Shown: positions 8,654 through 25,207 of the stretch, in pieces | Numbering within the stretch: position 1 is the first letter of the stretch | Layout of the letters: every line of letters begins with the position of its first letter | DNA from: a bacterium | Lineage (GTDB): Bacteria; Patescibacteriota; Andersenbacteria; UBA10190 | Assembly (NCBI GenBank): GCA_030698495.1 | Contig: JAUYKA010000008.1 | Location: 14,895 to 78,894 of the forward strand | Reading direction: 5' to 3' | DNA length: 64,000 nt | Notes under the pieces: generated by a model | What the model saw: the letters and a program-made list of their open reading frames with translations, nothing else | Databases searched by the model: none | What the model was told of the DNA's origin: nothing | Program-made: the position numbers and the translations under genes

Positions 8654-9475
8654 ATGCCGATTATAAAAGACTACATAATTAAAACTACTCTAAAAGGGAT
8701 AGAAAACACGGTCGGGTTGTTTGGTAAAGAGTTGTCAATCGGCGGTGAAAGGGGAGAGGTAACTTTATTTATGGGATTGCCAAAAGACATGGATCCTGCT
8801 TTTCAGCGCATATATAAAGAATGCCGTCCTTACACAATGACTTCTGTAGAGCGAATGTATGCCCTATACCAGGCCACAAAATATATTATTGTTCAGCATC
8901 TTCCTGGTGATTTTGTCGAGTGCGGGGTGTGGAGGGGAGGAAGTGTGATGCTGGTGGCTAAAACTCTTAAAGAACTTGGCGTAACTGATAGGCGTATACA
9001 CCTATTTGACACATTTAAGGGGATGACTACTCCAACTGACCGTGATGCAAGGATATCTGACAATCTGCCGGCAACTTCCCTATGGAAGACGCAAGCTCGC
9101 GGTGACTATAACGAATATGCTTATGCTCCCCTTGAAGATGTGCAGCGAAACTTGTCGACTACGGGATATCCCGAGGAAAATTTTGTTATTGTTGCCGGTC
9201 CAGTGGAAGAGACTTTACCACGATTAGCCCCACCAAAAATTGCTCTTTTGCGTTTAGATACGGACTGGTATGAGTCTACTAAACATGAATTGGAACATCT
9301 TTTCCCGCTGCTTGTACAAAATGGCATTCTAATCATTGATGATTACGGGCATTTCACCGGTGCACGGGATGCAGTTGACGAATATTTTAAGGAGAAAGGC
9401 ATTAATCTTCTATTAAACAGAGTGGACTACACTGGGCGATTGGCTATTAATACCGCGCCGCAAAATAACGGCTAA
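8654..9475 (+). CDS. TylF/MycF-family SAM-dependent sugar O-methyltransferase.
   Basis: The motifs FVECGVWRGGSVM and LRLDTDWYESTK are typical of macrocin O-methyltransferase-like class I methyltransferases. Confidence 0.8.
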   Translation: MPIIKDYIIKTTLKGIENTVGLFGKELSIGGERGEVTLFMGLPKDMDPAFQRIYKECRPYTMTSVERMYALYQATKYIIVQHLPGDFVECGVWRGGSVMLVAKTLKELGVTDRRIHLFDTFKGMTTPTDRDARISDNLPATSLWKTQARGDYNEYAYAPLEDVQRNLSTTGYPEENFVIVAGPVEETLPRLAPPKIALLRLDTDWYESTKHELEHLFPLLVQNGILIIDDYGHFTGARDAVDEYFKEKGINLLLNRVDYTGRLAINTAPQNNG

Positions 9476-11151
9476 TTTGCTCTGTTTTTCGCCGCGTAAA
9501 TTTCTTGCTCGTCGAGCAAGTTGATTGGAATAACAAATTTTCCTTTAAGCAGGTTGTTTGGTGTGGAAGGTTTAGCGTTTAGATGCTTGCTCGCGCGGTA
9601 GAGAAGGTAACTTAGGCTAAAATAGCGGGTGTGCGAGGTGGCTTTAATGATGGAGAGATTGTGTTTTTTCAAGAGGACAGCCAGGGACTTTCGGGAAAAA
9701 TAGTGAAGATGAGAAGGAAAAATGCAGTACCATGAACGTCCCATCATTTTAGCCAACAAACTATCAAAGCGAGGAGTAGTTAGCACAAATAAGCCATCAG
9801 GTTTTAGTAAGCGCGCTGCTTGAGAAATTAATTTTTGGGGTTCGGGATGGTGTTCAATAACGTCTAGCATAGCTATAACATCAAAACTGGCGCTATCTAA
9901 TTTAGCGAGAGCGTTGTTATCAGTTTGAATATTTGTTAAGCCAAATTCAGCTTCGGCATAAGAGGCTGAGGCAATTGAAGGCTCGATACCGGTAACCCGC
10001 CATCCCTGCTTTTTTGCTTCATTTAAGAAGAAGCCTGGCCCAGCCCCTATATCAAGAAGGTGCCCCGGTTTTTTATTGGCTGAAATCCTGCTTAGGATTT
10101 TACGCGCTGTTTTTTGTCTGGTAACTTTTTCTGATAGATAGACTGTGTCTAAGGGTGCGTATTTATAGAGATGAGAGAGCTGTTCAAAGCTGTTGTTGAG
10201 GGGCGTGAATCCATGAGAGCATGAGGGGCAGCGGTAAATTGGCAATTGCTTATTTGTGTCTTCAATAGAGATGCGGTATTGGTGCTGTTTGAAGAAAACG
10301 CTTGGTTTAATATTTCCTTTTTGAAACAGTTTTGTTTTGTGGCTGCAAATGGGACATTTTTGAGGCGACAGGCTGCCGCTGGGCTTAAGGGTTTTAAGAG
10401 TTGACAGGCCATATTTAACTGATGATGCAAAAGGGATAGACGACGATTCGTTTGTATAGCGGCAGGGGATGGCCGCTTCGGCAAAACGGAATTTTTGGCG
10501 GGCGGCGGAGGCAATCATTTCCGAGTCAAAGACGAAGCTGTCAGAGAACTCTTCGAAAGGCAGCGACTCTAAGAGTTGTTTTGAGTAGGCCCGGTAACCG
10601 GAGTGACATTCTGACAGCGATATTCCCAAAATTTTATTTTGTAGAAAGGTGAGCAGCCTGTTGCCCCAATATCGCCACCAAACCATGCCGAATTCTCGCG
10701 GGTCTTGTTTTAAAAATCTTGAACCAATAACAAAATCGGCTTCCTGATGTAAAATTGGCTTGATCATTTGCGGCACATAGCGCGGATCATACTGAAAATC
10801 AGGGTGTATCATTACCACAATATCCGCTCCATGCTGCAAGGCTTCCTTGTAACAGGTTTTCTGGTTTCCGCCATAGCCCTTGTTCTGCCGATGTTTCACG
10901 ACCTTTAACCCGTCTATTGTTTCAGCAACCTTGACCGTATTATCACTACTGGCATCGTCTACCAAAATCACTTCATGAACATGGGTTTTTGGTATGGCTT
11001 TGTATGTTTTGGCCAGTGTTTGCTCGGCGTTGAAGGCCGGTAATACTGCGATGATGTATGGCTTTGGTTGTGCAGGCTGATCGTTGTCGAAACTCCTGAT
11101 AGCAGTTGACTGTTTCTCTGTTTTGGTTGGCTGTCTTGTTAATACGTCCAT
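9472..11151 (-). CDS. Fusion protein: an N-terminal GT2 (GT-A) glycosyltransferase, a CxxC...CxxC zinc ribbon, and a C-terminal class I SAM methyltransferase.
   Basis: The N-terminus has AVLPAFNAEQTL...VILVDDASSDNT...VIGSRF, which is DPM/GtrB-like. The middle has CPICSH...CPSCSH. The C-terminus has LLDIGAGPGFF...FDVIAMLDVIEHHPEP...LKPDGLFVLTTP. Confidence 0.75.
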   Translation of the reverse strand: MDVLTRQPTKTEKQSTAIRSFDNDQPAQPKPYIIAVLPAFNAEQTLAKTYKAIPKTHVHEVILVDDASSDNTVKVAETIDGLKVVKHRQNKGYGGNQKTCYKEALQHGADIVVMIHPDFQYDPRYVPQMIKPILHQEADFVIGSRFLKQDPREFGMVWWRYWGNRLLTFLQNKILGISLSECHSGYRAYSKQLLESLPFEEFSDSFVFDSEMIASAARQKFRFAEAAIPCRYTNESSSIPFASSVKYGLSTLKTLKPSGSLSPQKCPICSHKTKLFQKGNIKPSVFFKQHQYRISIEDTNKQLPIYRCPSCSHGFTPLNNSFEQLSHLYKYAPLDTVYLSEKVTRQKTARKILSRISANKKPGHLLDIGAGPGFFLNEAKKQGWRVTGIEPSIASASYAEAEFGLTNIQTDNNALAKLDSASFDVIAMLDVIEHHPEPQKLISQAARLLKPDGLFVLTTPRFDSLLAKMMGRSWYCIFPSHLHYFSRKSLAVLLKKHNLSIIKATSHTRYFSLSYLLYRASKHLNAKPSTPNNLLKGKFVIPINLLDEQEIYAAKNRAN

Positions 11152-11209: not shown

Positions 11210-13066
11210 ATGTCTAATCTTGGGCAACAAAAAAATAATATACGTATAGTGAGTATTGGTTTGCTAATAATAGGTGTGCTTGCTAGTGTTTTCCAGCTGT
11301 TATATGGCGTGGTTAGTGCTTCTATAGACCGCGATACCTATTTTTTGCTGGCGGCGGGCAGGGAAGTGGCATTAAGTGGAATTCCGCGCCTTCCTTTTTT
11401 TGTGAATAGTACGCCCGGAATCGATATTCTCTTTTGGACACACCAAGTGCCCGCCTTCTTATATGGGGCAATAGTGAAATTTTTGGATGTAAATATTTTT
11501 AGTTTTACCTGGGTTGTCATTGCCCAATTGATACTGACTATGGTTATTAGCTTCTTGTTTTTACGGGAGTTGTTGAAATGGTGTGAGCCGGGACTGGTGC
11601 GCTATGCACCGGTGTTCCTGTTGTTCCTGCTATATGATCCGATATTTAACATTCTTTTCCTGAATATAAAAATGTTTTTGCAATGGGCATATATTTGGTC
11701 TGTCTTAGCCATAATATTTTTAATATGGTTTTGGCATAACCCCCGCGGATGGCGTGGTTTAGTTTGGCTGTTTTTAAGCAGTTGTTCAGTGGCATTAGCT
11801 CCATTATCTTTTATAAGCTTGGGCATTCCGGCGGCACTTGGCATTGCCATCACAGAACTCTTGTTTGTGAGGTGGAGAACAAAAGGAATTTCACGAGAAT
11901 ATGCCATAAAAGCCTTTCTGGCCTGTATTTTAGGCTGGTTTATACCAGTGCTTTTTTTGTTAGTGTATTTGGGTGGTAAGCTGGATCCTGGCCAATGGAA
12001 AACTTTATGGGTTCTGGTTGGCTCTTATGGAGAAAACGCTTCCGTTCTAAGCATAAAACAATATATTCTCCAGCTTGGTTTTTTTGGGAGCACCATGTTT
12101 ATACCGCTACAGGGGTTCAGCTTGCTGCCAATCGGATTAATCTCAATATTTTCTAATTTTGTGCGGCGGCACAGTCTGGCTATCCAGCAGCAGTATTTGG
12201 TGTGGATGTCTTTTGTGTTGGTTGCAGCTTGGTTATTAGCGGCTTCTGTGGGGAGCACGCATTTTGCCAGCCACTTAATGATATGGATTTTGCCCATAAT
12301 GTTAGTGAATATTGCTATTATTTTAGGTTCAAAGAAGAACAGCGACACAAGAGCGATATTTTTGACGGCAGCATCGATTATTATTCTGGGGCAGGCTAGT
12401 TATCACTTAGTGCTTAATTCCTTAAACTATCTGGCAATTGCCGCGGCAGCAGGTGTGACATCGGGGATGATAATAGTTTTGTATTATCAAAAATGGAAAT
12501 TGCCGGTCTTTATAAGTTTGTTTATTTCTTTGTTGTTTTTTGTGCCGGTTGTACAAACAAGGTTAGTTTCCCTACATTCTTTTGCCCCAACGGTTTTACG
12601 GGAGGTCGGACGTGATAAATTATGGTCGTACGATAATTTTTTATTGGCTACTCGTGAAGTAACTAGCCGTTATGTTCAACCAAATGATTGGGTGTTAACT
12701 AATTTACCAGTGACTGAGCTTTTTCCCGAGGGCGTGAAGTTACAAATTCTTTATAACTATCGTGGTTTATTTAGCGGTGCTCGCCTTGAGCCGGGTGATG
12801 TGGCTATTCTTTTTGGTTCTACTGAAGCGAAGAGCATTGCTAATTATCAAAATATGAGTGTAGGTGAAGTATTTTCTTACCGTTTGTTTGAATATGAAAT
12901 ATTGAAGCGAGAAGAACTTTCTGCTGGGCATTATTTGTTAGTTGCTAAGCCAGCGGCCAGTTTAGATGCTAATAAGCAAGTTATTGAAGATGATCGAGCT
13001 GCTTCCAAAAGTGAGGTACGAAATTATTTGCAATGGCGGTTGGAGAACAATTTGCCAATTAAATAG
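11210..13066 (+). CDS. Large polytopic membrane protein of unknown function, a GT-C-like candidate with a C-terminal soluble domain.
   Basis: 618 aa with about 12 predicted TM helices, then a roughly 180-aa hydrophilic C-terminus. The first extracytoplasmic loop contains DRD. I recognise no family motif. Confidence 0.5.
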   Translation: MSNLGQQKNNIRIVSIGLLIIGVLASVFQLLYGVVSASIDRDTYFLLAAGREVALSGIPRLPFFVNSTPGIDILFWTHQVPAFLYGAIVKFLDVNIFSFTWVVIAQLILTMVISFLFLRELLKWCEPGLVRYAPVFLLFLLYDPIFNILFLNIKMFLQWAYIWSVLAIIFLIWFWHNPRGWRGLVWLFLSSCSVALAPLSFISLGIPAALGIAITELLFVRWRTKGISREYAIKAFLACILGWFIPVLFLLVYLGGKLDPGQWKTLWVLVGSYGENASVLSIKQYILQLGFFGSTMFIPLQGFSLLPIGLISIFSNFVRRHSLAIQQQYLVWMSFVLVAAWLLAASVGSTHFASHLMIWILPIMLVNIAIILGSKKNSDTRAIFLTAASIIILGQASYHLVLNSLNYLAIAAAAGVTSGMIIVLYYQKWKLPVFISLFISLLFFVPVVQTRLVSLHSFAPTVLREVGRDKLWSYDNFLLATREVTSRYVQPNDWVLTNLPVTELFPEGVKLQILYNYRGLFSGARLEPGDVAILFGSTEAKSIANYQNMSVGEVFSYRLFEYEILKREELSAGHYLLVAKPAASLDANKQVIEDDRAASKSEVRNYLQWRLENNLPIK

Positions 13067-13102: not shown

Positions 13103-14032
13103 ATGCATAACAGCGAAGCAAAACCGAATGATTGGCTGAGCCGGATAGCTTTTGATGAAACTGTTGCCAACTATACCTCTCAAAGGGGCGAAGACAGGAT
13201 ACTGCAAAAGTTGTTTGAAACAATAGGTATAAAAAATAAGTGGTGTGCGGAGTTTGGGGCGGCTGACGGCAAGCATCGAAGCAATACCTGGTATTGGATA
13301 AATAAGCAGGGGTGGTTTGGTGTGCAGATAGAAGCGGCACGGGATGTTAATTTGGGCTTGAGGATACCTTGGCACGATAGTTTTGAGGCTTTACGGCGCC
13401 GTTACAAGAATAATAAGAAGATTGTGTGCTTCAATAAGTGGGTGGGGACCAAAGGTGAGAACGCATTAGATCAGATTTTTCGAGAGACTGGCATTCCGAA
13501 AGATTTTGATTTGCTTTCAATGGATGTGGATGGCGCCGAGTATGATATTTGGCAAGCGATGGTCGAATATAAGCCGCGAGTGATGGTTATTGAATATGAT
13601 AAAACGATACCGGTAGAAATTGATTTCCATTCGGATCGCGGATCGAGTTTACGGGCGTTGGCGCGATTGGGTAGAGAAAAAGGATATGAGTTGGCGGCGG
13701 CTAATGATTTGAACGGGGTTTTTGTAAGAAAGGAATTTTTTGGGATGCTGGGCATTAGCGACAATGATCCGGCCCGGTTGTGGTCAGGGTATGAACAGTA
13801 CAGGGTTTACGCGCAGAAGAATAATAAGGGGAGCTTAGAATTTTTTGGCCCAAACAATTTAAGGTGGGTTAGCGGCAAGGACGGAACTTTGAGAGGACAG
13901 TTTGAGTCGGGACAATATATCTGGATTAAACCCGGAGAAACTTCTATTAAAAGCAAAAAAGAAAATAGTAAGATGACTTGGTATTTAACGGGGTGGCTGC
14001 GTCACTGGTTTTATTATTTGACGGGAACTTAA
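13103..14032 (+). CDS. FkbM-family SAM-dependent methyltransferase.
   Basis: The N-terminal pattern SQRGEDRIL...WCAEFGAADGKHRSNT...GWFGVQIEA matches the FkbM signature (SQxGED..., fvDvGAnDG..SNT...GW.Gl.iEp). Confidence 0.6.
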   Translation: MHNSEAKPNDWLSRIAFDETVANYTSQRGEDRILQKLFETIGIKNKWCAEFGAADGKHRSNTWYWINKQGWFGVQIEAARDVNLGLRIPWHDSFEALRRRYKNNKKIVCFNKWVGTKGENALDQIFRETGIPKDFDLLSMDVDGAEYDIWQAMVEYKPRVMVIEYDKTIPVEIDFHSDRGSSLRALARLGREKGYELAAANDLNGVFVRKEFFGMLGISDNDPARLWSGYEQYRVYAQKNNKGSLEFFGPNNLRWVSGKDGTLRGQFESGQYIWIKPGETSIKSKKENSKMTWYLTGWLRHWFYYLTGT

Positions 14033-16628: not shown

Positions 16629-17834
16629 ATGCGAGTAGCTTTGGCGGTGGGGGGAATTAGTTATCTTAAGATTTTTGGATCTTTGATAAAGGAGAGCCAT
16701 AGATTTGGAATAGAGCCGATTATTCTGTATTGGCATCCGGAGAAAGATAGCAAAATTTATGAGAACATAACGGGGGATGCTTTATTGAGAACTTTTCCCG
16801 AACTATCCACCGAACAGTTGCATGAATTTGATCCCGCCAACATAAAGGATGTCCTGATTAGAACAAATTGTCAGGCAGTGTTATTTCTTTCGGCATATAA
16901 GCAATATTGTGACCAACTATCTGAAATAGAAGAGCATAACATTTCTACCTGGCGCCTGGAACATTTTGTGAATTCAATTTATGAAACAGCGAAGACAGAA
17001 TATGGTGCCGACGTAGATATGGCCATGAAGCATCTAACGGGTAAGTTTGTGGCCACTGATTTTTGGAAAAATTTGGAATTTAAAATCAAACCGGAGCTAT
17101 CAGCCGTGGCAGATAAATATTATATAGTTGGAAACTTGGTGGCTGACGTTTATAGGTATATAGAACCGGAAAATGCCAGACGAATTTTAAATATTAAGTC
17201 TAATGAAAAAATAATTACTTTTTTTGCCCCTAATATTAGAAAGCACCATTCTTATTATGTTTGGGGTTGGCGCTCGCAGAAGAAATTAGAAACGTTATTA
17301 AAGGAGCTTAGAAATTATTGTGATGAGTTCGGGTATAAACTAGTTATTAAATCCAGAAGAAAACAGTGGGATAATCCTTTGTATAAGGAATACGCCGACC
17401 ATTTTTTTACTGATGTTGTTAGTGCTGCTTATCCCCATGCGTCAGCTTTATTATTGAGTTTGTCTGAATTAATGGTTCATATGGGCTCCATGGCAGTATT
17501 GGAAGCGGCGGCTGTCAATGTTCCTTCTTTGGGGGTGGGAGTGTCGTCAATTGATAAGTTACACGGCTATATGAGTAAGCGGGCCAGACAAATCATTAAA
17601 AAAGATTTGTTTGGAGAGGAGGAGGGATGTCCGTTTTCCTTTAAGGGTGTGTCGGAGCAGATCTCGGTGAACCGAATTAAGAAGGATCTGCCGGAGAGGT
17701 GTGATAGTTTGATTAACTTGAGGGTTAAAAACATGAATAAAATGTTGGACTACAAAAGTAAATTTATAGGTACGTCCCGGTTGTCGGCGGATCGAATTTG
17801 GGAAGAAATTAAAAAACATCATGCGAGCAGTTAA
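16629..17834 (+). CDS. GT-B-fold-like transferase of unknown family. It is a candidate glycosyl- or glycerophospho-transferase, or the missing nonulosonate transferase.
   Basis: 401 aa. The C-terminal half has SELMVHMGSMAVLEAAAVNVPSL, typical of a GT-B C-domain. I could assign no family. Confidence 0.35.
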   Translation: MRVALAVGGISYLKIFGSLIKESHRFGIEPIILYWHPEKDSKIYENITGDALLRTFPELSTEQLHEFDPANIKDVLIRTNCQAVLFLSAYKQYCDQLSEIEEHNISTWRLEHFVNSIYETAKTEYGADVDMAMKHLTGKFVATDFWKNLEFKIKPELSAVADKYYIVGNLVADVYRYIEPENARRILNIKSNEKIITFFAPNIRKHHSYYVWGWRSQKKLETLLKELRNYCDEFGYKLVIKSRRKQWDNPLYKEYADHFFTDVVSAAYPHASALLLSLSELMVHMGSMAVLEAAAVNVPSLGVGVSSIDKLHGYMSKRARQIIKKDLFGEEEGCPFSFKGVSEQISVNRIKKDLPERCDSLINLRVKNMNKMLDYKSKFIGTSRLSADRIWEEIKKHHASS

Positions 17835-18834
17835 AGAAATTCAAGGGTTGCAGGTGGCAGCTAACGATGTGCTTAATTGGCTTCTTCAGAATAGGTCGAA
17901 AAGACTTAATAAGGAAGAATCATATGTTATGAGTATGTTTCGTCAGCAGTTATTGAAAACATATGAAATTTTACCAGTTGGCAGCAAGGGGCAAACAGTG
18001 AAGCTAAAACAATATCGAGTTCCTACAGAAAAAAAATATTTAGCTATTTATGAACTTCAGCAACAATTTCAAGAATTGAGAAACTATTTTAAAGCAGTGA
18101 TTATTCATGGGAGTTTGGCTGATGGATATGTTGTCGATAATTGGAGTGATGTGGATATTCTAGCAATTGTCAAAGACGATGTTTTTGAAAGTACAGAAAA
18201 ATTTGTAACTCTGCGTAAAAAACTATTATCGCTAGAGGAAGGATTGTATAAGTATGATCCGTGGCAACACCATGGGGTGCAGTACATAAGTGAGTCTGAT
18301 CTGGGTTTTTATCCTGAATATTTTTTACCAATTAATGTTATTAAGGAAGGCAGGTTGTTGGTGGGACAAAGTAGGTTGGTTTTTAATTTACGTGGTTCGG
18401 CGGAAGAACAAAGCGCTCGTTTGTACGCAATAAAAGATTTATTTATGGAGTCGGCTAAAAATGGGGAAATGAAGCATCATGCCAGGGACGGAAAATATCT
18501 TCAAGAAGATTTTCGTATGGCAAAAGATAATTTTTATCAGTTCAAGTATTTTATTTCACTAATTTTGTTGATGCCCAGTTTATTTATTGCGCTAGTTGAT
18601 AAACCGATTGATAAAAGGAAGTCTTTTGAAGTTATAAAGAATTATTTTTCTGAAGGCGATTTGGAATTAATCAGGGCAGGTGAGGAAGCGAGGTCTTTGG
18701 CGCCTGATTTTCATATCAAGAACAACGAAATTCCTCTTATTGTCCAAGAAACTCTTGGTGGGGGTTACTTTAAAAGGGCGAGTAAAATATTGAATCTATT
18801 TGTTAAAGAATATGAGTTACGTAAATCTGCCTAA
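17821..18834 (+). CDS. Polymerase-beta-like nucleotidyltransferase-fold protein.
   Basis: VIIHGSLADGYVVDNWSDVDILAIV matches the hG[GS]x9-13Dh[DE]h nucleotidyltransferase motif. A roughly 200-aa helical domain follows. Confidence 0.5.
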   Translation: MRAVKEIQGLQVAANDVLNWLLQNRSKRLNKEESYVMSMFRQQLLKTYEILPVGSKGQTVKLKQYRVPTEKKYLAIYELQQQFQELRNYFKAVIIHGSLADGYVVDNWSDVDILAIVKDDVFESTEKFVTLRKKLLSLEEGLYKYDPWQHHGVQYISESDLGFYPEYFLPINVIKEGRLLVGQSRLVFNLRGSAEEQSARLYAIKDLFMESAKNGEMKHHARDGKYLQEDFRMAKDNFYQFKYFISLILLMPSLFIALVDKPIDKRKSFEVIKNYFSEGDLELIRAGEEARSLAPDFHIKNNEIPLIVQETLGGGYFKRASKILNLFVKEYELRKSA

Positions 18835-19825
18835 AAAGACCGGATATGAAGTATATCGAGTGTGCGAAGAAGAGTTTGTAGAAACAGCTCGAAAATACGC
18901 GGATATTCTGGCGGTATATTCCGGTGGCACAGTCAAGCATCCGGGAATATCGGATTTAGATTTTATTGTTTTTCTAAAAAATCAACTTTCAGTTCGAATG
19001 GATATAGAAAATCGGTTGCCGCAAAAAGTAGTAAAGATGCTAAAAGGAGGGACGATTTTGAAAATTAACGAAAGGAACATACGTGATATTCAAATTATCG
19101 ACCCGTTGCCCTTAAAGCATTTATATGGAGACAAGTATGTATTCCGTCGATACGATGGCACTACTTTCAGTATTTGTCGTATTCTTGATTGGTTGCCAGA
19201 AAGAATTTTTTCTTTATGGCAATATGTATCGCAAGATAGGCGCGATGTTTCCAGGGGCTTGTTGCTATTAAAATCTCTCACAGTCAGTTTGGACCTGGTG
19301 GATCAGCTAAAAGGCGATGGGGCGTATGCTGCTTATCACGAAGAAGTGCATAGTCTCCGCCGCTTGTGGTTTGTATCAGAAAAATCTTTGGAAAATTTTA
19401 ATATTCTGTTAAAACGGGGTATGTGTTTGGCACAAGAAGCTCTTGATAGTATTTCTTTGTGGCTTGTTGATCAAAAATATATATCAGGTAGCCCCGAATT
19501 TATTAAGGGAGCGGTGTTTGATATTCCAAGTGGGCCTACATTTCATTTTGACCAAAAAACACATATAGTGAGAAGCCGCTTATATATTCCATGGGTAGTT
19601 GCAATATTTTTAGCGCAGCAAGCTCAAAGCGGGAAAGGATATCTGTCTATGAGGCTTAAAAAATCATTTGATACTATCATAGATGCAAATCAATATGATA
19701 TAAATTGGGCGTTTGCTAATACAATAACTAAACGTATTGCGTATGTGGAATCCCTGATTAAATTTTTTCATGACAATGGCCTGTCACGGGGTTTGCTGAA
19801 ATACGGTTGGTATTTAAAAGACTAG
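18800..19825 (+). CDS. Polymerase-beta-like nucleotidyltransferase-fold protein, a paralog of the 17821..18834 gene.
   Basis: AVYSGGTVKHPGISDLDFIVFL is a nucleotidyltransferase motif. Its length and layout match the upstream gene. Confidence 0.5.
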   Translation: MLKNMSYVNLPKKTGYEVYRVCEEEFVETARKYADILAVYSGGTVKHPGISDLDFIVFLKNQLSVRMDIENRLPQKVVKMLKGGTILKINERNIRDIQIIDPLPLKHLYGDKYVFRRYDGTTFSICRILDWLPERIFSLWQYVSQDRRDVSRGLLLLKSLTVSLDLVDQLKGDGAYAAYHEEVHSLRRLWFVSEKSLENFNILLKRGMCLAQEALDSISLWLVDQKYISGSPEFIKGAVFDIPSGPTFHFDQKTHIVRSRLYIPWVVAIFLAQQAQSGKGYLSMRLKKSFDTIIDANQYDINWAFANTITKRIAYVESLIKFFHDNGLSRGLLKYGWYLKD

Positions 19826-19828
19826 GGT

Positions 19829-21097
19829 ATGGATGCTAAAAAAATATACGAACAGCTTTTTTATCTGGATCGCTCACTTATGGGGTCGGCTAATGACAAA
19901 GCTCTTGAATTGATAGGGGCCGAAATACCTTTGAGGATTTATAGTTTTCGCAGCGGCGATAAAGTTTTTGATTGGCAGATTCCTAAAGAGTGGATATTTC
20001 ATTCGGGACACATGGTCGATCAAGATACGGGTAAAACGTTGCTGAATGCTGCCGATAATATACTGCGCGTTGTTAATTACAGCGAGAAATTCCACGGCAC
20101 CGTAGAGTACAAGCAGTTGGTAAAGCATCTTCATTATAGTCATGTCATGCCCAATGCGATCCCTTATCTTACTAGTTATTATGCTAAAAACTGGGGGTTG
20201 TGTATGCCCCAAAAACAATTTCATCAGTTAAACAAGAAACATACGTATAAGGTTGAAATTGATGTCGAACGGAAGAGCGGAGTAATGAATATTGGGGAAG
20301 CGGTAATAAAAGGGAAGTCAGACAAAGAGGTTGTATATTCTTCCTATTTATGTCATCCCAGACAAGCCCATGATGGGTTGTCGGGAGTTGTTATGATGTT
20401 GTTGTTATTCCATCTCTTACGAGATAGCAATAATTATTATACTTATCGTTTTTTATTTATTCCTGAAACGATTGGCAGCATCGCTTTGTTGTCGCGCAAT
20501 ATTATACGTCCTTCTCGGGTGGAATATGCCCTTGTCGTTACGTGTGTCGGCAGGGGAGAGCATATTAATTATAAAAAGACGTTTTTGGCAAACCACACTA
20601 TTGATCGTGTTGTGGAACGAGTGCTTAAGAAAAAGGGAAGAAAATATACAGTGCGAACATTTTGGCCCCAAGGCAGTGACGAGCGACAGTTTTCGAGTCC
20701 AAGCATAAGAATTCCCACCGGGTCTATTATGGGAAATGTTTATCAGGAATACCCCGAATATCATACTTCGGCGGACAATTTGAATTATGTATCTTTGCCT
20801 GCGGTGAAAAAATTTGCTCAATTATACTATCAAGTTGCTAAAGAGTATGAGCAGTACCCTAAATTGATCAATAATCTACCGGGGGGTGAGCCTTTTTTGA
20901 CTAAGTATGGTTTGTATCGTGTATTAGGAGTACCCGGGCATACGTCACAAGAGACAATTCGCAGTTGGATATTGTTTCTGGCCGATGGCAGCCATACAAT
21001 TGTTGATATGGCGGCAGAAACCGGTTTTACTGAACGTGAGCTAAAGCCGTTTGTGGCACAATTACTTAAGATGAAGTTAATAAAAGAAACTGAATAA
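19829..21097 (+). CDS. Hypothetical protein, possibly an M28-peptidase-like (DUF4910-type) domain protein with a C-terminal winged helix.
   Basis: 422 aa. The assignment is from memory of the family (IYSFRSGDKVFDWQIPKEW, FIPETIGSIALL) and is tentative. Confidence 0.35.
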   Translation: MDAKKIYEQLFYLDRSLMGSANDKALELIGAEIPLRIYSFRSGDKVFDWQIPKEWIFHSGHMVDQDTGKTLLNAADNILRVVNYSEKFHGTVEYKQLVKHLHYSHVMPNAIPYLTSYYAKNWGLCMPQKQFHQLNKKHTYKVEIDVERKSGVMNIGEAVIKGKSDKEVVYSSYLCHPRQAHDGLSGVVMMLLLFHLLRDSNNYYTYRFLFIPETIGSIALLSRNIIRPSRVEYALVVTCVGRGEHINYKKTFLANHTIDRVVERVLKKKGRKYTVRTFWPQGSDERQFSSPSIRIPTGSIMGNVYQEYPEYHTSADNLNYVSLPAVKKFAQLYYQVAKEYEQYPKLINNLPGGEPFLTKYGLYRVLGVPGHTSQETIRSWILFLADGSHTIVDMAAETGFTERELKPFVAQLLKMKLIKETE

Positions 21098-21098
21098 A

Positions 21099-22904
21099 AT
21101 GGATATGTTTGTGCAGAAACCATACGTTCTGGCGGAAATTGCCGGGGCTCACGATGGCAGTGAAGAGCGATTATTTCAATTGATTGATGCTATTGGTGAA
21201 ACAGGAGCCCATGGAGTTAAATTCCAATTATTTCAAGCCGAAGGGCTGGCCACACAAGATCATCCACAGTATGCAATATGGCAGCGCCTTTCCTTTACAA
21301 CAGATATATGGCTTAGGGCTATGGACAAGGCGCGAGGCCTCGGGTTGAATGTGTGGATCGATGTCTTTGATGACTGGGCGCAGGATTTTTGTCTAAAGCA
21401 CGAGAAAAAAATATATGGGTATAAGTTTCATGCAACAAAGGTATTTGACCCGAGAGTTCCCCGTGTTTTTTACGGGAGTAAGAAGCATATCCTTATTGGC
21501 ATAAGCGGTTATGAAGACAGCGAGGTGCATAAACTTGTAAATTTATACTCCAGGTTACGACACGCCTCAATAATTCTCGAACATGGTTTTCAGCAATACC
21601 CCACGCCTTTAAAGGAAGCCAGTCTGGCGCGCATTCGACACTTAAAAGATAGTTTTATGTTACCGGTTGCGTTTGCCGACCATACTAAAGGGGGCTCAAG
21701 GGAAGCCATGATGATTCCGGAATATGCTTATATGGTCGGTGCCTCTTTGATTGAAAAACATGTTTGTCTTTCCCGAGCCACTACGAAGTATGATTATCAT
21801 TCTTCGCTGGAACCGGGGGAATTAAAGAGAATGGTTGAGCGGCTACGTGTTTGTAATGATGTATTGGGTGAGGATACGCCCACTATTGCACAAATTGAAA
21901 ACACGAAACAAGTTGTAGTAAAACCGGTGTTAAAAAGAAGTATAAAAAAAGGGGTTGTGGTGGGCGAGAAAGATGTGACTTATCTTCGTTCCCCTAATCG
22001 TAACGCTTTAACTGCTGAACGGTTTCAATCTCTTTTTCCGGCAGTTACCGACATGGATCTGGTTGCGGGGCGTGTTATTGAGGGAAGAGATGTACATCGT
22101 CCTCGTGTTATTGCGGTTGTGCCTTGTCGAATGAAATCCACTCGTTTACCCAAGAAGGCTCTATTAGAAATAGGCGGAATGCCTTCTGTTAAACGAGCAT
22201 TGATAAACATAAAGACTTTTCCGGTGAGCCAGGTTGTGTTGGCAACTTCTATTAATGGCGAAAATGATGAGCTGGTGGAGTATGCCAAGGAATTAGATGT
22301 CTCGGTAGTGAGAGGACCAGAGGATGATGTGTTAGAGAGAATTATTTTAGCAGTCAATAAGTATCAGGCAGAGTATGTAATTCGTTGTCCGGCTGATTCC
22401 ATTTTTGCAAGCGGTGACATTATGCGTTTTCTGATCGAGCGGCATATTACATCCGGATATGATTTGACGACTCCCGCTCAACCATATTCTATTGGCACGG
22501 CGGGGGAAGTGTATACCGTCGAAGCGCTTTATAAATTACGCAAATTACTTTTTAAAACCGAGTATAGTGAATACTTGCCGATGTATTTTACTAATAATCC
22601 GTCTATTTTTACCGCACAGCGGGTTCTTCTTCCTGAACAATTTCGTAATGATCAATGGAGATTAACTCTAGATGAAGAAAGAGACTTGGAATTATTTCGT
22701 AAAATTTATGATTACCTTAAACCCGGCCACAATCCTGTTTTCTATGAGCAGGTTGCCGAGTTTTTTGCCGCCTATCCGGGTGCGGAGAAGATTAACGCGG
22801 GAGTTTCTACTAAATGGTGTGATGACTATGAATTAGTAAGAAAAATTACAGAGAAAACTACTATTTCAAAAAAAGTTATATTAACGAATCGGGCAGTTGT
22901 TTGA
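21099..22904 (+). CDS. Bifunctional fusion: an N-terminal NeuB/SpsE-like nonulosonic-acid synthase domain (TIM barrel plus SAF-like) and a C-terminal SpsF/NeuA-like cytidylyltransferase domain.
   Basis: The N-terminus has VLAEIAGAHDGS...HGVKFQLF...AFADHT...IEKHVCLS, which is NeuB-like with a variant NHNG. The C-terminus has IAVVPCRMKSTRLPKKALLEI...VLATS...VVRG, the cytidylyltransferase signature. Confidence 0.7.
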   Translation: MDMFVQKPYVLAEIAGAHDGSEERLFQLIDAIGETGAHGVKFQLFQAEGLATQDHPQYAIWQRLSFTTDIWLRAMDKARGLGLNVWIDVFDDWAQDFCLKHEKKIYGYKFHATKVFDPRVPRVFYGSKKHILIGISGYEDSEVHKLVNLYSRLRHASIILEHGFQQYPTPLKEASLARIRHLKDSFMLPVAFADHTKGGSREAMMIPEYAYMVGASLIEKHVCLSRATTKYDYHSSLEPGELKRMVERLRVCNDVLGEDTPTIAQIENTKQVVVKPVLKRSIKKGVVVGEKDVTYLRSPNRNALTAERFQSLFPAVTDMDLVAGRVIEGRDVHRPRVIAVVPCRMKSTRLPKKALLEIGGMPSVKRALINIKTFPVSQVVLATSINGENDELVEYAKELDVSVVRGPEDDVLERIILAVNKYQAEYVIRCPADSIFASGDIMRFLIERHITSGYDLTTPAQPYSIGTAGEVYTVEALYKLRKLLFKTEYSEYLPMYFTNNPSIFTAQRVLLPEQFRNDQWRLTLDEERDLELFRKIYDYLKPGHNPVFYEQVAEFFAAYPGAEKINAGVSTKWCDDYELVRKITEKTTISKKVILTNRAVV

Positions 22905-23562
22905 AATTGCTATGCAGCACATGAATAATAGAAACAATACTTATCTAACCAAAAGCGAAGAAAGTCGTTTACGGTTATTGGAGAAAAATTCTCATGAATA
23001 TCTAGAACAACTGCAGGACAGTGCTCTTAAGTGGTCGTGGAGAGGGTGGATACCGCGGGCGCTGGGGAGATCTAAGTATTCCTTGTGGGCATGGCAAACA
23101 CGAGTTCCTCTGGCGCATCGTTGGTCCTTAATTCTTCAGCAATGTGAAGAATTAAGGACTTTTTTGATCCAGTCGGATTCATGGGAAAAAGCGCGATGTA
23201 TGAATGTGCTTGATTTGGGATGTGGTTTTGGCATGTATTGGCCAATATTGAGGGAATATGGATTCCGTAAGTTTGTGGGAATAGATTTATTCGATATGAG
23301 GGGGAGGCAGCAATATTTTAAAGCGGCGAGAAAATATATTGGAAAATTTTGTTCGGACTGTGAAACTCAATTAATTATGGACGATGTTCGAAATCTAGAT
23401 AAACATAAACTGCTGGCTGATAAGTTTGATATAATTTTAAATATAGCAACTACCTCCACAAAACTTAGATCCACCGGTATTCCCCACGATATTCTAGAGA
23501 GTGTCGGGAAAAAACATGGGGCAGAAAATTGCCTTATAGTCGACGTTGCCAAGGCCCATTAA
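22897..23562 (+). CDS. Class I SAM-dependent methyltransferase.
   Basis: It has VLDLGCGFGMYW (motif I), FDIILNI and a post-I acidic residue. Confidence 0.6.
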   Translation: MFEIAMQHMNNRNNTYLTKSEESRLRLLEKNSHEYLEQLQDSALKWSWRGWIPRALGRSKYSLWAWQTRVPLAHRWSLILQQCEELRTFLIQSDSWEKARCMNVLDLGCGFGMYWPILREYGFRKFVGIDLFDMRGRQQYFKAARKYIGKFCSDCETQLIMDDVRNLDKHKLLADKFDIILNIATTSTKLRSTGIPHDILESVGKKHGAENCLIVDVAKAH

Positions 23563-24636
23563 TTGCATGTTATGACACACACTTATGTGATAGGTGAAAT
23601 AGGGCAGAACCATAATGGTTCTGTGGGTCTGGCAAAACGCATCATTGATATAGCGTCTATGCCGGTTATTGACAATAATGGCCGTGAGTACAAGGCAATG
23701 GATGCGATCAAGCTGCAAAAAAGGGACCTACGTGAAGAGATGACTGCTTCAGAGAGGCTAAAAGCGTATGATAGTACAAATTCTTTTGGTAGAACATACG
23801 GAGAGCACAGAGCGTATTTAGAATTAAGCAACGAGCAGCATGCGGAGCTTTATTACTACGCTAAAAATAGAGGGCTGGAGGTGGTGGAAACCATTTGCAG
23901 TGTGGGAGCGCTGGAGCTGCTTGATTTTTTTAAACCAGATAAATTAAAAGTTGCTTCAAGGGATCTGACTAATTTGCCATTGGTTGAGGCGATGGCAAGA
24001 ACTAAAATACCCCTTATTCTTTCGACGGGGATGTCGGGAATTGAAGATTTGGCAGAAGCTTTAAAAATTGTCAGTGCGTATCAATCCAGAATTACTATTT
24101 TGCATTGTCTTTCCCAGTATCCGGCGGATTATAAAAATATAAATTTGCATACCATTACATATCTTCGCCGGGAATATCCTCAACATATTATCGGTTACTC
24201 TGACCATAGTGAAGGCATTATGATTCCAGTTGCGGCGGTGTCTTTGGGCGCTCAAGTTATTGAAAAGCATTTAACATTGAATCGTGCAATGAAAGGATCT
24301 GATCATCGGGGGGCCTTGGCCCCTGATGGTGTTTTTCGGATGATGCGCGATATACGACATTTGGAGTTGGCTCTAGGAGAGCCAATAATGGAAGCTCATC
24401 CTGCAACTACCATCGCAAGGGATAAACTGGAAAGGTCAGTTGCTGCCAGAAGAGACCTGATGATTGGAGAGATTATAACAGAGGAAGATATCCATTTGCT
24501 TAGTCCGGGGATGGGGTTGAAATGGAGAGATAGAGGAAAGATTCTAGGACGCAAAGTCAAGCAGGTTGTCAAAAAAGATGAGCTGATACTATTGGAAGAT
24601 TGCACGCAGGAGACCGTGCTGCAAAAAGTAGCCTAA
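23563..24636 (+). CDS. NeuB-family nonulosonic acid synthase (N-acetylneuraminate / legionaminate / Kdn-type).
   Basis: VIGEIGQNHNGS, PLILSTGMSG, ILHCLSQYP, IGYSDHSEG and VIEKHLTLNRAMKGSDH align with NeuB catalytic motifs. A C-terminal SAF domain follows. Confidence 0.85.
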   Translation: MHVMTHTYVIGEIGQNHNGSVGLAKRIIDIASMPVIDNNGREYKAMDAIKLQKRDLREEMTASERLKAYDSTNSFGRTYGEHRAYLELSNEQHAELYYYAKNRGLEVVETICSVGALELLDFFKPDKLKVASRDLTNLPLVEAMARTKIPLILSTGMSGIEDLAEALKIVSAYQSRITILHCLSQYPADYKNINLHTITYLRREYPQHIIGYSDHSEGIMIPVAAVSLGAQVIEKHLTLNRAMKGSDHRGALAPDGVFRMMRDIRHLELALGEPIMEAHPATTIARDKLERSVAARRDLMIGEIITEEDIHLLSPGMGLKWRDRGKILGRKVKQVVKKDELILLEDCTQETVLQKVA

Positions 24637-24643
24637 ATTAGCC

Positions 24644-25207
24644 CTATATCGTTTTGGCGATCAGTAGTAATTCTAGTATTTCTCTGACGGCGCCGTCCCC
24701 GCCTGAAGATTTAGTAATGTACCCTTTTGTTTTTTGGACAAAATCAATGACTGGCGGGTAAGAATCTTTTACGGCAATGGGCAATCCAACTGCCCGGAGA
24801 CAGTCAAGGTCATTTAAATCATTGCCAACATATATTGTATTTTTCAAAGAGATTTTTCTTGATTTAGTCTGTTTTTGTAACTCAATTAATTTATTGGTGA
24901 CGCCGTGATATGCTTTAATTTTTAATTTGTTGGCACGAGAGACGACGATGTTGTTTGCTTCTGCGGATATGATTATAAATTTAAGACCCAGGGCGACTAA
25001 TTCTTTATAACCAAAAAAGTCACTGCGATCACATTGAACATACTCTAACCCCTCTCGATCTATTAATACTTTATTATTGGTGATTACTCCATCGAAATCT
25101 AAAACAACAAGCTTACAATTGCTAAGTATTTCTTTAGTTTTCTTGGGTAATCTATCAAATCTATTTTTAGCCTCTTTATTTTTGATGATGATATTGACGT
25201 AGTTCAT
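24644..25207 (-). CDS. HAD-superfamily KdsC/YrbI-family phosphatase (Kdo-8-P or nonulosonate-9-P phosphatase type).
   Basis: LVVLDFDGVITNN (DxD motif I), YVGNDLNDL and GDGAVREI are the classic KdsC family motifs. Confidence 0.85.
   Translation of the reverse strand: MNYVNIIIKNKEAKNRFDRLPKKTKEILSNCKLVVLDFDGVITNNKVLIDREGLEYVQCDRSDFFGYKELVALGLKFIIISAEANNIVVSRANKLKIKAYHGVTNKLIELQKQTKSRKISLKNTIYVGNDLNDLDCLRAVGLPIAVKDSYPPVIDFVQKTKGYITKSSGGDGAVREILELLLIAKTI

Follow-up and report, generated by a model that had tools for sequence, protein, structure and literature searches.

Paired nucleotidyltransferase-fold proteins associated with nonulosonate genes in Patescibacteria and other bacteria

An overlapping gene pair in a nonulosonate block

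The window analysed here, a stretch of 64,000 nucleotides from a bacterium of the Andersenbacteria (Patescibacteriota), contains a tightly packed, co-directional block of genes on the + strand (16629-24636). Two overlapping genes, ORF1 and ORF2, lie in this block together with genes for the synthesis and activation of a nonulosonate (NulO). The features are, in order:

16629-17834, + strand: ORF of 401 aa, family unknown, opens the block; 14-nt overlap with ORF1
17821-18834, + strand: ORF1, 337 aa, ATG start
18812-18834, + strand: overlap of the ORF1 stop and the ORF2 start, 23 nt with the ATG at 18812; read as translational coupling
18812-19825, + strand: ORF2, 337 aa, second family without annotation; alternative TTG start at 18800
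19829-21097, + strand: DUF4910/DUF2172/HTH_47/M28-like "aminopeptidase-like polysaccharide biosynthesis protein" (Pfam E 4e-72)
21099-22904, + strand: fusion of a divergent NeuB-like domain (Pfam E 2.8e-31) and CTP_transf_3, a CMP-ulosonic acid synthetase (4e-17)
22897-23562, + strand: class I SAM methyltransferase (weak Pfam methyltransferase matches)
23563-24636, + strand: canonical NeuB-type nonulosonate synthase with SAF domain (Pfam NeuB E 1.4e-66)
24644-25207, - strand: KdsC-like HAD phosphatase (Pfam Hydrolase_3), convergent with the block

These coordinates agree with the initial annotation, which had described a co-directional block with an adjacent, overlapping pair, and both catalytic-motif peptides that it had quoted are found in the ORF1 and ORF2 translations. 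ORF2 likely starts at the ATG at 18812, since this start gives the NCBI-called 337-aa product and is the one at which all homologues start. Similar overlaps, of 17-35 nt, are present elsewhere (L001, L004, L006, L007 and L009), and the overlap is 1-4 nt in two loci with distant pairs (L022 and L024).

No Pfam, NCBIfam or PDB match was obtained for the 401-aa ORF, labelled GT-B-like in the initial annotation. Homologues of it (31-34% identity) immediately precede the pair in no loci other than the closest ones from Saccharibacteria (L006, L009/10, L011). The DUF4910-type architecture likewise follows the pair in L018 and on the P0101 contig. Campylobacter jejuni Cj1295, which bears the same family name, alters the flagellin pseudaminic-acid glycan (PMC3068675). 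The methyltransferase travels with the module: homologues with 45-54% identity are present in L006 and L009-L011, and on the P0101 contig a 222-aa methyltransferase comes after a CTP_transf_3-ORF2 fusion. The canonical NeuB scores 263 bits against TIGR03569, under the equivalog cut-off, and a KdsC-like phosphatase is also encoded beside NeuB in L006, L009, L010 and L012-L015. Besides the CTP_transf_3 fusion, no cytidylyltransferase was found in the window, nor any CDP-polyol or CDP-choline synthase; only some relatives (L006, L009) carry IspD/NTP_transferase-type genes.

ORF1 and ORF2 are different members of the Pol-beta superfamily

ORF1 and ORF2 are two different nucleotidyltransferase (NTase)-fold proteins of the Pol-beta superfamily, both with intact catalytic Asp residues. 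The loose motif G[SG]x9-13DxD, which had been assigned to both proteins, is not significant alone: it occurs in 4 of the 54 ORFs of the window and in 2-5% of ORF1 and ORF2 shuffles. Moreover, while ORF1 fits it, ORF2 has the shorter spacing GG-x8-DxD (G39-T40-x7-D48-x-D50). We judge the catalytic signatures to be real because they are invariant across both families, and weak but consistent HMM matches and fold predictions add support. The conserved segments are:

18109-18156, + strand: ORF1 catalytic signature GSLADGYVVDNWSDVD, G97-S98 ... D110-x-D112
18265-18294, + strand: ORF1 QHHG...E158 segment
18926-18961, + strand: ORF2 catalytic signature GTVKHPGISDLD, G39 ... G45-I-S47-D48-L-D50
19187-19204, + strand: ORF2 motif DWLPER, D126-R131, on a long helix after the NTase core

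The [DE]h[DE]h metal-binding pair corresponds to D110-V-D112 in ORF1 and D48-L-D50 in ORF2, and is kept in all aligned members. Among the 23 ORF1-family sequences, S98, S109, D110 and D112 are invariant; in the nucleotide loop (H96-G97-S98), position 97 is G in 18 sequences and S in the other 5. H150 and H151 are likewise present in 23/23 and E158 in 22/23. In the ORF1 model, E158 is placed at the end of a predicted strand (153-157), after the helix that follows the DxD strand, and is a candidate third carboxylate or general base. For ORF2, all 157 family sequences retain G39, S47, D48 and D50, and the nucleotide loop is G38-G39-T40, with S or T at position 40 in 115 of them. Its third carboxylate could be D97 (present in 135/157), which follows helix 87-95, or D126/E130 on the DWLPER helix. 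Judging from the alignments, DWLPER (D126 in 150/157, E130 and R131 each in 152/157) is the hallmark of the NulO-associated ORF2 clade; it is missing from the ORF2-like partners of the distant Wzx/Wzy pairs.

At the sequence level, ORF1 has no Pfam match above the gathering threshold. It matches NTP_transf_2 (PF01909) with E 5.8e-4 and 20.6 bits, just under the gathering cut-off of 21, and all of its 9 relatives also match this family (best E 4.3e-6). Nor does it belong to the curated ANT/Lnu models, with 14.3 bits against a cut-off of 340 for the NCBIfam ANT(9) model and no other ANT/Lnu match. ORF2 has no Pfam match, 6 of 30 relatives giving weak matches to Polbeta (PF18765), although its family comprises 1,604 representative clusters at E<=1e-3. 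PDB searches with phmmer using the single proteins gave zero sequence matches for either.

The AlphaFold model of ORF1 (pLDDT 85.5) begins with helices, continues with an alpha/beta NTase core and ends in a helical domain, which is the two-domain architecture of the ANTs. Foldseek matched it to many NTases with probabilities of 0.96-1.0, its PDB matches including AadA/ANT(3'')(9), LinB, ANT(4'), ANT(9), the GlnE N-domain, DrrA and MNT; about 300 columns align with AadA (TM 0.50-0.56 by target length). The ORF2 model (pLDDT 96.2) has a minimal NTase core at the N-terminus, followed by a large C-terminal part of helical/beta structure. Only its N-terminal 90-110 aa or so match minimal NTases, with probabilities of 0.75-0.91 for PDB 2rff and MNT (0.91 for 2rff) and 0.97 for a Catovirus Pol-beta NTase. 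Since Foldseek found no solved relative of the C-terminal part, and none over the full length, the C-terminal two thirds yield no functional hint. The alpha-beta-alpha-beta-alpha-beta core was found by Foldseek in both proteins. Together with the invariant Asp residues, these matches bear out the proposed Pol-beta-like fold, and the models agree with the description of a mostly helical region after each core. The suggested likeness to aminoglycoside and lincosamide nucleotidyltransferases holds for ORF1, for which these O-nucleotidyltransferases are the nearest solved structures. Substituted Asp residues, which the initial annotation had named as the mark of a non-catalytic family, were not seen.

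The two proteins had also been called adjacent, overlapping paralogs of roughly 340 aa. Adjacency, overlap and size (337 aa each) stand, but not paralogy: BLASTP found zero similarity between them, hhalign of the small family profiles gave 2.8% probability, and once the profiles had been enlarged, the alignment was confined to 66 columns of the NTase core (86%, E 5e-6). From these comparisons, ORF1 and ORF2 share a superfamily but are not recent paralogs.

The pair accompanies nonulosonate genes in distant lineages

Wherever a locus has sufficient flanking sequence, ORF1 and ORF2 are adjacent, which holds for about 16 independent loci or lineages, and they usually overlap; in L003-5 the gene order is inverted. 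In several Patescibacteria (L012-L015, P0065, P0084, P0118, P0124, P0181-P0187) they are fused into a single ORF of 642-655 aa. ORF2 is fused to the CMP-sugar synthetase CTP_transf_3 in P0101, and fusions of the pair to a methyltransferase also occur. CTP_transf_3 lies within about 4 kb of the pair in all DWLPER-type loci except one, directly adjoining it in L001/2, L007/8, L013, L014, L016 and L020/21, and NeuB lies within a few kb in the NulO-type loci. Carriers include Saccharibacteria, Harrisonbacteria, a SAR11 cell and Salinibacter ruber, where the pair is in a flagellin glycosylation island. A plasmid search did not find the pair on plasmids. This synteny supports the view that the pair truly belongs to the NulO locus and is no hitch-hiking toxin-antitoxin system, and contradicts the alternative, raised in the initial annotation, of an NTase-HEPN module unrelated to the locus.

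Distant pairs (L022-L024) are found in polysaccharide loci of the Wzx/Wzy type that have neither NeuB nor CTP_transf_3 within 9 kb, and the ancestral function is therefore taken not to be nonulosonate-specific. One ORF2 homologue (L019) is solitary and distant from glycan genes. The constant pairing in both gene orders, the two kinds of fusion (ORF1 to ORF2, and ORF2 to a CMP-sugar synthetase) and the distant Wzx/Wzy pairs are the most telling facts about the pair, and had no place in the initial annotation. The glycosyltransferase candidate beside the module varies: it is the 401-aa ORF here, GT29 in Salinibacter, Capsule_synth on the P0101 contig and a TagF-like protein in L014. Since the pair stays with the sugar-making genes while this candidate changes from locus to locus, action at the level of the monosaccharide seems to be indicated.

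A putative accessory enzyme of the CMP-nonulosonate pathway

Paired NTase-fold genes beside the enzymes of NulO synthesis and activation point to a step of bacterial surface-sugar chemistry that has yet to be characterised. A search for literature on these two families found none. Our best reading is that of an obligate two-subunit transferase whose substrate is the nonulosonate or its CMP-activated form. More specifically, and tentatively, ORF1 and ORF2 may constitute one accessory enzyme of the CMP-nonulosonate pathway that nucleotidylylates a sugar hydroxyl at the monosaccharide or nucleotide-sugar level. As the fusions and the synteny suggest, the two proteins would form a physical complex, heteromeric in this bacterium and built as one chain by fusion in other Patescibacteria.

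For the acceptor, the nucleotide and the type of reaction (ANT-like O-nucleotidylylation as against LicD-like transfer), we infer the following scheme. NeuB would make the nine-carbon keto-acid sugar and CTP_transf_3 its CMP ester, and the pair would modify the sugar after NeuB, around the CTP_transf_3 step, either as monosaccharide or as nucleotide-sugar. The likeliest chemistry would be that of AadA/ANT/Lin, in which the sugar hydroxyl attacks the alpha-phosphate of an NTP in a Mg2+-dependent manner, giving an O-NMP phosphodiester. This product could itself be the decoration in its final form, or it could serve as an activated leaving group in later tailoring by the DUF4910 protein and methyltransferases. 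We know of no nucleotide-decorated nonulosonate or polysaccharide.

The proposed chemistry has its model in the ANT/LinB family, whose members nucleotidylylate hydroxyls of sugar-derived molecules. AadA/ANT(3'')(9), ANT(9), ANT(4') and LinB give ORF1 its best structural matches over the full length, and share with it the Pol-beta NTase core, the helical domain and a GS...DxD...E signature. ANT(4') and LinB are dimers with their active sites at the interface, which fits an obligate ORF1/ORF2 pair. Unlike the ANTs, ORF1 has an extra N-terminal helical segment of about 50 aa and conserved HH motifs, its partner is a different protein rather than a second copy, and the context is glycan biosynthesis, not resistance.

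It is also conceivable, although we regard it as a long shot, that the pair and its fusions represent a new enzyme class acting on the CMP-nonulosonate from the adjoining or fused CTP_transf_3, either in nonulosonate transfer with CMP as the leaving group (a "sialyltransferase") or in installing a nucleotide or phosphodiester. To our knowledge, neither nonulosonate transfer by an NTase fold nor nucleotide or phosphodiester substitution has been described for nonulosonic acids. If such a class existed, the ANT and Lnu resistance enzymes could plausibly have descended from these housekeeping enzymes.

Alternative roles

LicD and FKRP expel CMP from CDP conjugates, and a LicD/fukutin-like polarity is possible for the pair as well, if rather unlikely: it would bind a cytidine conjugate, CMP would leave and the moiety would be moved to a glycan acceptor, with CMP-nonulosonate as donor and the pair as an NTase-fold nonulosonate transferase at the extreme. 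The earlier statement that a role of this fold in glycan pathways is not established was too strong, since the LicD/fukutin/FKRP/CpsC branch (PF04991) has an established role in glycan assembly, using cytidine-nucleotide conjugates and transferring phospho-alcohols from CDP conjugates to glycans, including a poly-Kdo primer (PMC11666461; PMC2794190). CpsC acts on a Kdo-primed acceptor, which is extended with a GT-B-like TagF-family partner (PMC11666461), an arrangement that resembles the 401-aa ORF, the NTase pair and the ulosonic-acid genes. Both in the genome and through fusion, the pair is linked most closely to the CMP-sugar synthetase, and CMP-nonulosonate would be the sole CMP conjugate made by the locus, because the window has no second cytidylyltransferase; in relatives, the IspD/NTP_transferase-type genes (L006, L009) could make CDP-polyols, and L014 has its TagF-like gene. 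Nevertheless, none of 39 family members (9 + 30) matched PF04991, even at E<=1, and both the style of the motif ([GS]S/T-x7-11-SD[VL]D) and the fold of ORF1 are those of the NTP-using ANT/MNT branch. The window also lacks the synthases for CDP-polyol or CDP-choline, and most loci already have a plausible nonulosonate transferase (GT29, Capsule_synth, TagF-like or the 401-aa ORF). Furthermore, no glycosyltransferase of NTase fold is known to us.

O-nucleotidylylation of the sugar, the reading that we prefer, has also to be weighed against modification of a protein. GlnE/DrrA-like AMPylation of a pathway enzyme or of a protein acceptor such as flagellin, with two domains that might add and remove the mark as those of GlnE do, is improbable. 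With ORF1 as query, Foldseek gave its lowest E-values for the AMPylation domain of DrrA and the N-terminal domain of GlnE, but with TM values of only 0.30-0.35 and an rmsd of 16 A, compared to 0.5-0.56 for AadA. In GlnE and GlnD, a single polypeptide contains two NTase domains that have diverged, both with a helical domain, as in the natural ORF1-ORF2 fusions; GlnE, however, acts on a protein tyrosine under PII regulation, and no such partners are present at the locus. While the Salinibacter pair lies within a flagellin glycosylation island, the majority of carriers are Patescibacteria loci without flagellins, and the link of the pair is to the CMP-sugar synthetase, not to a protein partner that stays constant. 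An MNT/HEPN toxin-antitoxin or CBASS-like CD-NTase defence module that just happens to lie within the glycan locus is scarcely credible, and this reading was rejected. These systems share with the pair a minimal NTase core, an SD[VL]D motif and a two-gene arrangement, and the ORF1 profile matches CdnD and MNT antitoxins around the motif; yet these matches span only about 50 residues at GS...DxD (E 1e-4 to 1e-2). The weak PADLOC matches to oligonucleotide cyclases and PDC-S09 cover about 45 residues (E 2e-3 to 1e-2), ORF2 having none. The proteins measure about 337 aa against 100-150 aa or so for MNT and HEPN, ORF2 has its own NTase core, and neither alignment conserves the Rx4-6H HEPN motif (R291 of ORF1 is invariant but H298 is not conserved). 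No effector genes are present, the synteny with NeuB and CTP_transf_3 crosses phyla, and the fusions to CTP_transf_3 and to a methyltransferase, like the absence from plasmids, do not fit such modules. It is very improbable, finally, that ORF1, ORF2 or both are non-catalytic and serve as a scaffold, chaperone or nucleotide-sugar-binding subunit. ORF2 scores above threshold in no NTase HMM and has no clear candidate for its third carboxylate, and the motif Gly of ORF1 is replaced by Ser in 5/23 members. In both families, however, DxD and the Ser/Gly of the nucleotide loop are 100% invariant at 21-50% identity, and such invariance over deep divergence is unexpected for pseudo-enzymes.

Genomic context of the NTase pair

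A large surface-glycan locus occupies roughly 7.6-41 kb of the window and encodes many GT2/GT4 glycosyltransferases, sugar epimerases/dehydratases, an ABC exporter, YfhO-like membrane proteins and at least nine methyltransferases. Inside it lies a tight plus-strand gene block (16629-24636) containing two genes for proteins with a nucleotidyltransferase (NTase) fold, ORF1 and ORF2 (locus tags Q8P73_01235 and Q8P73_01240), which overlap by 23 nt.

Genes of the block and the gene that follows it
16629-17834, +, 401-aa ORF with no assigned family, first gene of the block
17821-18834, +, ORF1, 337 aa
18812-19825, +, ORF2, 337 aa when started at the ATG (with a TTG at 18800)
19829-21097, +, DUF4910/DUF2172/HTH_47/M28-like "aminopeptidase-like polysaccharide biosynthesis protein", next after ORF2
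21099-22904, +, fusion of a NeuB-like domain and CTP_transf_3 (CMP-sugar synthetase), 601 aa; the NeuB-like part is divergent and falls under equivalog cut-offs
between the preceding fusion and the canonical NeuB, +, methyltransferase
23563-24636, +, canonical NeuB (nonulosonate synthase), two genes downstream of the fusion
after the block and convergent with it, KdsC-like HAD phosphatase

The presence of a NeuB-like/CTP_transf_3 fusion and of a second NeuB could reflect the synthesis of two distinct ulosonic acids, or else channelling between synthase and activase. The DUF4910 protein carries the same family description as that given for Campylobacter jejuni Cj1295 (a match by description), which is needed for modified pseudaminic acid on flagellin and alters the flagellin pseudaminic-acid glycan (PMC3068675). 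A DUF4910-type protein follows the NTase pair in the window, in locus L018 and in the P0101 contig. The 401-aa ORF had no match in Pfam, NCBIfam, PADLOC or the PDB, and no fold or family could be assigned to it; in three Saccharibacteria loci its homologues (31-34% identity) immediately precede the pair. Judged by eye only, its C-terminal segment 'HMGSMAVLEAAAVNVPSL' resembles a GT-B nucleotide-sugar-binding helix.

ORF1 and ORF2 are kept together and in some loci fused

The genomic behaviour of the pair is the key result of this analysis. Across the public-assembly loci, members of the two families adjoin each other wherever the flank suffices, usually in the order ORF1-ORF2 with overlapping stop and start codons, and in reversed order in L003-L005. 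Four Patescibacteria genome loci (L012-L015) encode both as a single chain of 642-655 aa with both signatures intact, for example at 9077-11011 in L014, and the same fusion occurs in many metagenomic proteins (P0065, P0084, P0118, P0124, P0181-P0187). Fusion, adjacency kept despite the reversed order, and translational coupling indicate that ORF1 and ORF2 function as a single enzyme.

ORF2 is also fused to a methyltransferase, in P0173, and to a CTP_transf_3 CMP-sugar synthetase, in P0101. The contig of the latter reads GT2, NeuB, CTP_transf_3-ORF2, methyltransferase, a 334-aa unknown, DUF4910/DUF2172/HTH_47 and Capsule_synth, and is thus the gene set of the window, reshuffled. In P0004, the by-eye impression that an N-terminal extension was a cytidylyltransferase fragment was unsupported by Pfam and BLASTP and is given no weight here. 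In L017 (9989-11063) and L018 (9992-13326), from a Pelagibacteraceae single-cell assembly and a gammaproteobacterial MAG, the ORF2-like, ORF1-like and DUF4910 genes are broken into short ORFs, the result either of assembly errors or of frameshifts in pseudogenes.

The pair is linked to CMP-nonulosonate synthesis

On local HMM maps, all but one of the loci whose ORF2 carries the DWLPER motif (D126-R131) have a CTP_transf_3 gene no further than about 4 kb from the pair, and in six lineages that gene directly adjoins it; NeuB lies within a few kb in the loci of this clade. The nearest related loci belong to Candidatus Saccharibacteria, and the carriers include other Patescibacteria, Harrisonbacteria, the Pelagibacteraceae single cell, the gammaproteobacterial MAG (with fragmented genes) and Salinibacter ruber. 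A tblastn search of plasmids for the pair gave no match, and L019 holds a lone ORF2 homologue among unrelated genes.

More distant pairs, namely P0191 and its 321-aa partner in Flavobacteriaceae and P0188 and its 325-aa partner, occur in Wzx/Wzy polysaccharide loci, flanked by the gene for the Wzx flippase and by GT4 genes. No NeuB or CTP_transf_3 was found within 9 kb of them, and their ORF2-like partners lack DWLPER. The two-protein arrangement is thus a device of glycan loci in general, and the clade of the window is its nonulosonate-linked branch.

Catalytic signatures, fold and relationship of the two proteins

The initial annotation had recognised the pair by the motif G[SG]x9-13DxD. Both peptides that it quoted are present in the translations, and the literal motif fits ORF1; ORF2 reads GG-x8-DxD and does not fit it. 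Since a loose version of the motif occurs in 4 of the 54 ORFs of the window and in 2-5% of shuffles of the two proteins, we rejected the motif by itself as evidence. The actual support for an NTase signature, at the level of sequence, is conservation within both families. S98, S109, D110, D112, H150, H151, K265 and R291 are invariant among 23 ORF1 sequences (E158 is present in 22), as are G39, S47, D48 and D50 among 157 ORF2 sequences, of which 96-98% keep D126, E130 and R131 of the DWLPER motif and R183. With both catalytic signatures invariant, neither protein resembles a pseudo-enzyme.

ORF1 scores slightly below the PF01909 threshold, although its nine relatives all match this model. Its AlphaFold structure (pLDDT 85.5, pTM 0.85) resembles two-domain NTases. 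The structure aligns with AadA/ANT(3'')(9) at TM 0.50-0.56 over about 300 columns and further matches ANT(9), ANT(4') and LinB, a structural kinship with the antibiotic sugar-O-nucleotidyltransferases. The DrrA AMPylation domain and the GlnE N-domain gave the best E-values but poor TM, and MNT antitoxins matched the core only. Searches of PDB sequences with single proteins or profiles returned only motif-level matches, to CdnD, ANT(4') and AAD(9).

ORF2 had no match in Pfam, NCBIfam, PADLOC or by PDB sequence. Its AlphaFold model is very confident (pLDDT 96.2, pTM 0.92); the likeness to minimal NTases is confined to the first 90-110 residues, and the remaining two thirds had no solved or viral relative. 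When the full set of 1.84 billion representatives was scanned by HMM, 1,604 clusters scored E<=1e-3 and 898 reached E<=1e-10, which makes this a sizeable family without annotation or Pfam model. The two proteins had been described as paralogs. BLASTP found no similarity between them, hhalign gave 2.8% probability with small profiles, and enlarged profiles aligned across no more than 66 columns, all in the NTase core (86%, E 5e-6). There is thus no recognisable paralogy, and a close one is rejected.

Proposed function

ANT(4') and LinB are dimers with active sites between the subunits, which by analogy makes an ORF1/ORF2 heterodimer plausible. The gene most tightly associated with the pair, through both adjacency and fusion, encodes the CMP-sugar synthetase, whereas the candidate glycosyltransferase beside it differs by locus (the 401-aa ORF in the window, GT29, Capsule_synth or a TagF-like protein elsewhere). 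This suggests that the target is the nonulosonate or its CMP ester and not a particular acceptor glycan. The chemistry that we favour, by structural analogy, is an NTP-dependent O-nucleotidylylation of a sugar hydroxyl. This would yield either a decoration or an activated leaving group, which the DUF4910 protein and the methyltransferases would then use in further tailoring.

The main rival reverses the polarity: as in LicD, CMP would be expelled from a cytidine conjugate. The LicD-type branch is the one part of the superfamily that has proven glycan roles, and one of its members, CpsC, acts on a Kdo primer in concert with a TagF-like protein (PMC11666461), contradicting the earlier statement that enzymes of this fold lack such roles. 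However, the LicD profile was matched by no member of either family, by which we rejected LicD membership, and no CDP-alcohol is made by the genes of the window. Protein AMPylation, for which the E-values with DrrA and GlnE would speak and the poor TM against, is less likely than sugar nucleotidylylation, as is a scaffold role, given the invariant signatures. Also less likely is a toxin-antitoxin or defence module: the core match to MNT antitoxins is set against protein size, the absent HEPN motif, the PADLOC results and synteny, on which that reading was rejected. The initial view of a locus-embedded, sugar-directed pair of NTase-fold proteins is upheld.

Flagella, capsules and cell walls are decorated with nonulosonic acids, a group comprising the sialic, pseudaminic and legionaminic acids with their many derivatives, which influence immune and phage recognition. 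To our knowledge, an enzyme is yet to be assigned to many of the steps that tailor them. The fold and superfamily of the pair were already known; the novelty lies in the two families themselves, which lack annotation, in their obligate pairing or fusion, and in the link to CMP-nonulosonate biosynthesis. In the library searched, no paper combined nonulosonic acids with the NTase fold, Saccharibacteria or Patescibacteria. In candidate-phyla-radiation bacteria, in Salinibacter and in marine bacteria the module is genetically locked to a CMP-sugar synthetase. It is a concrete, testable candidate for a missing reaction and a solid, experimentally tractable lead, with S. ruber as a cultivable carrier. 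Its structural kinship to the antibiotic sugar-O-nucleotidyltransferases also bears on the origin of those resistance enzymes.

Additional observations

The S. ruber locus (L007, 1-21107) is a flagellin glycosylation island containing the pair, NeuB, CTP_transf_3 and a methyltransferase, together with two flagellins, two sulfotransferases, a NeuB-AP_endonuc_2 fusion and, adjoining a transposase, a fragment of GT29, the eukaryote-type sialyltransferase family. The genes of the pair lie there at 8805-10025 and 10001-11107. Taken together, the island hints that flagellin carries a sulfated nonulosonate. In two Saccharibacteria glycan loci a RuBisCO large-subunit-like protein is encoded upstream of the pair (L006, 821-2131; L009, 673-1986), in an odd context of NTP_transferase/IspD-like and HAD genes and, in L006, a GatZ/KbaZ-like gene.

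SAM methyltransferases are unusually dense at 8654-30452 of the window (at least nine), suggesting a heavily methylated glycan. They include:

8654-9475, TylF-type O-methyltransferase
9472-11151, -, GT2-methyltransferase fusion
13103-14032, FkbM-type methyltransferase

Two very large adjacent minus-strand ORFs (812 and 949 aa, 2274-7539), the second with a YfhO-like C-terminus, and a 618-aa polytopic membrane protein with no family match (11210-13066) are possible GT-C-type glycan transferases or polymerases. GC skew, (G-C)/(G+C), is strongly positive (0.09-0.31) in all 2-kb bins of the window (1-64000) irrespective of gene orientation, with no switch across the 64 kb, and far exceeds the usual bacterial strand asymmetry.
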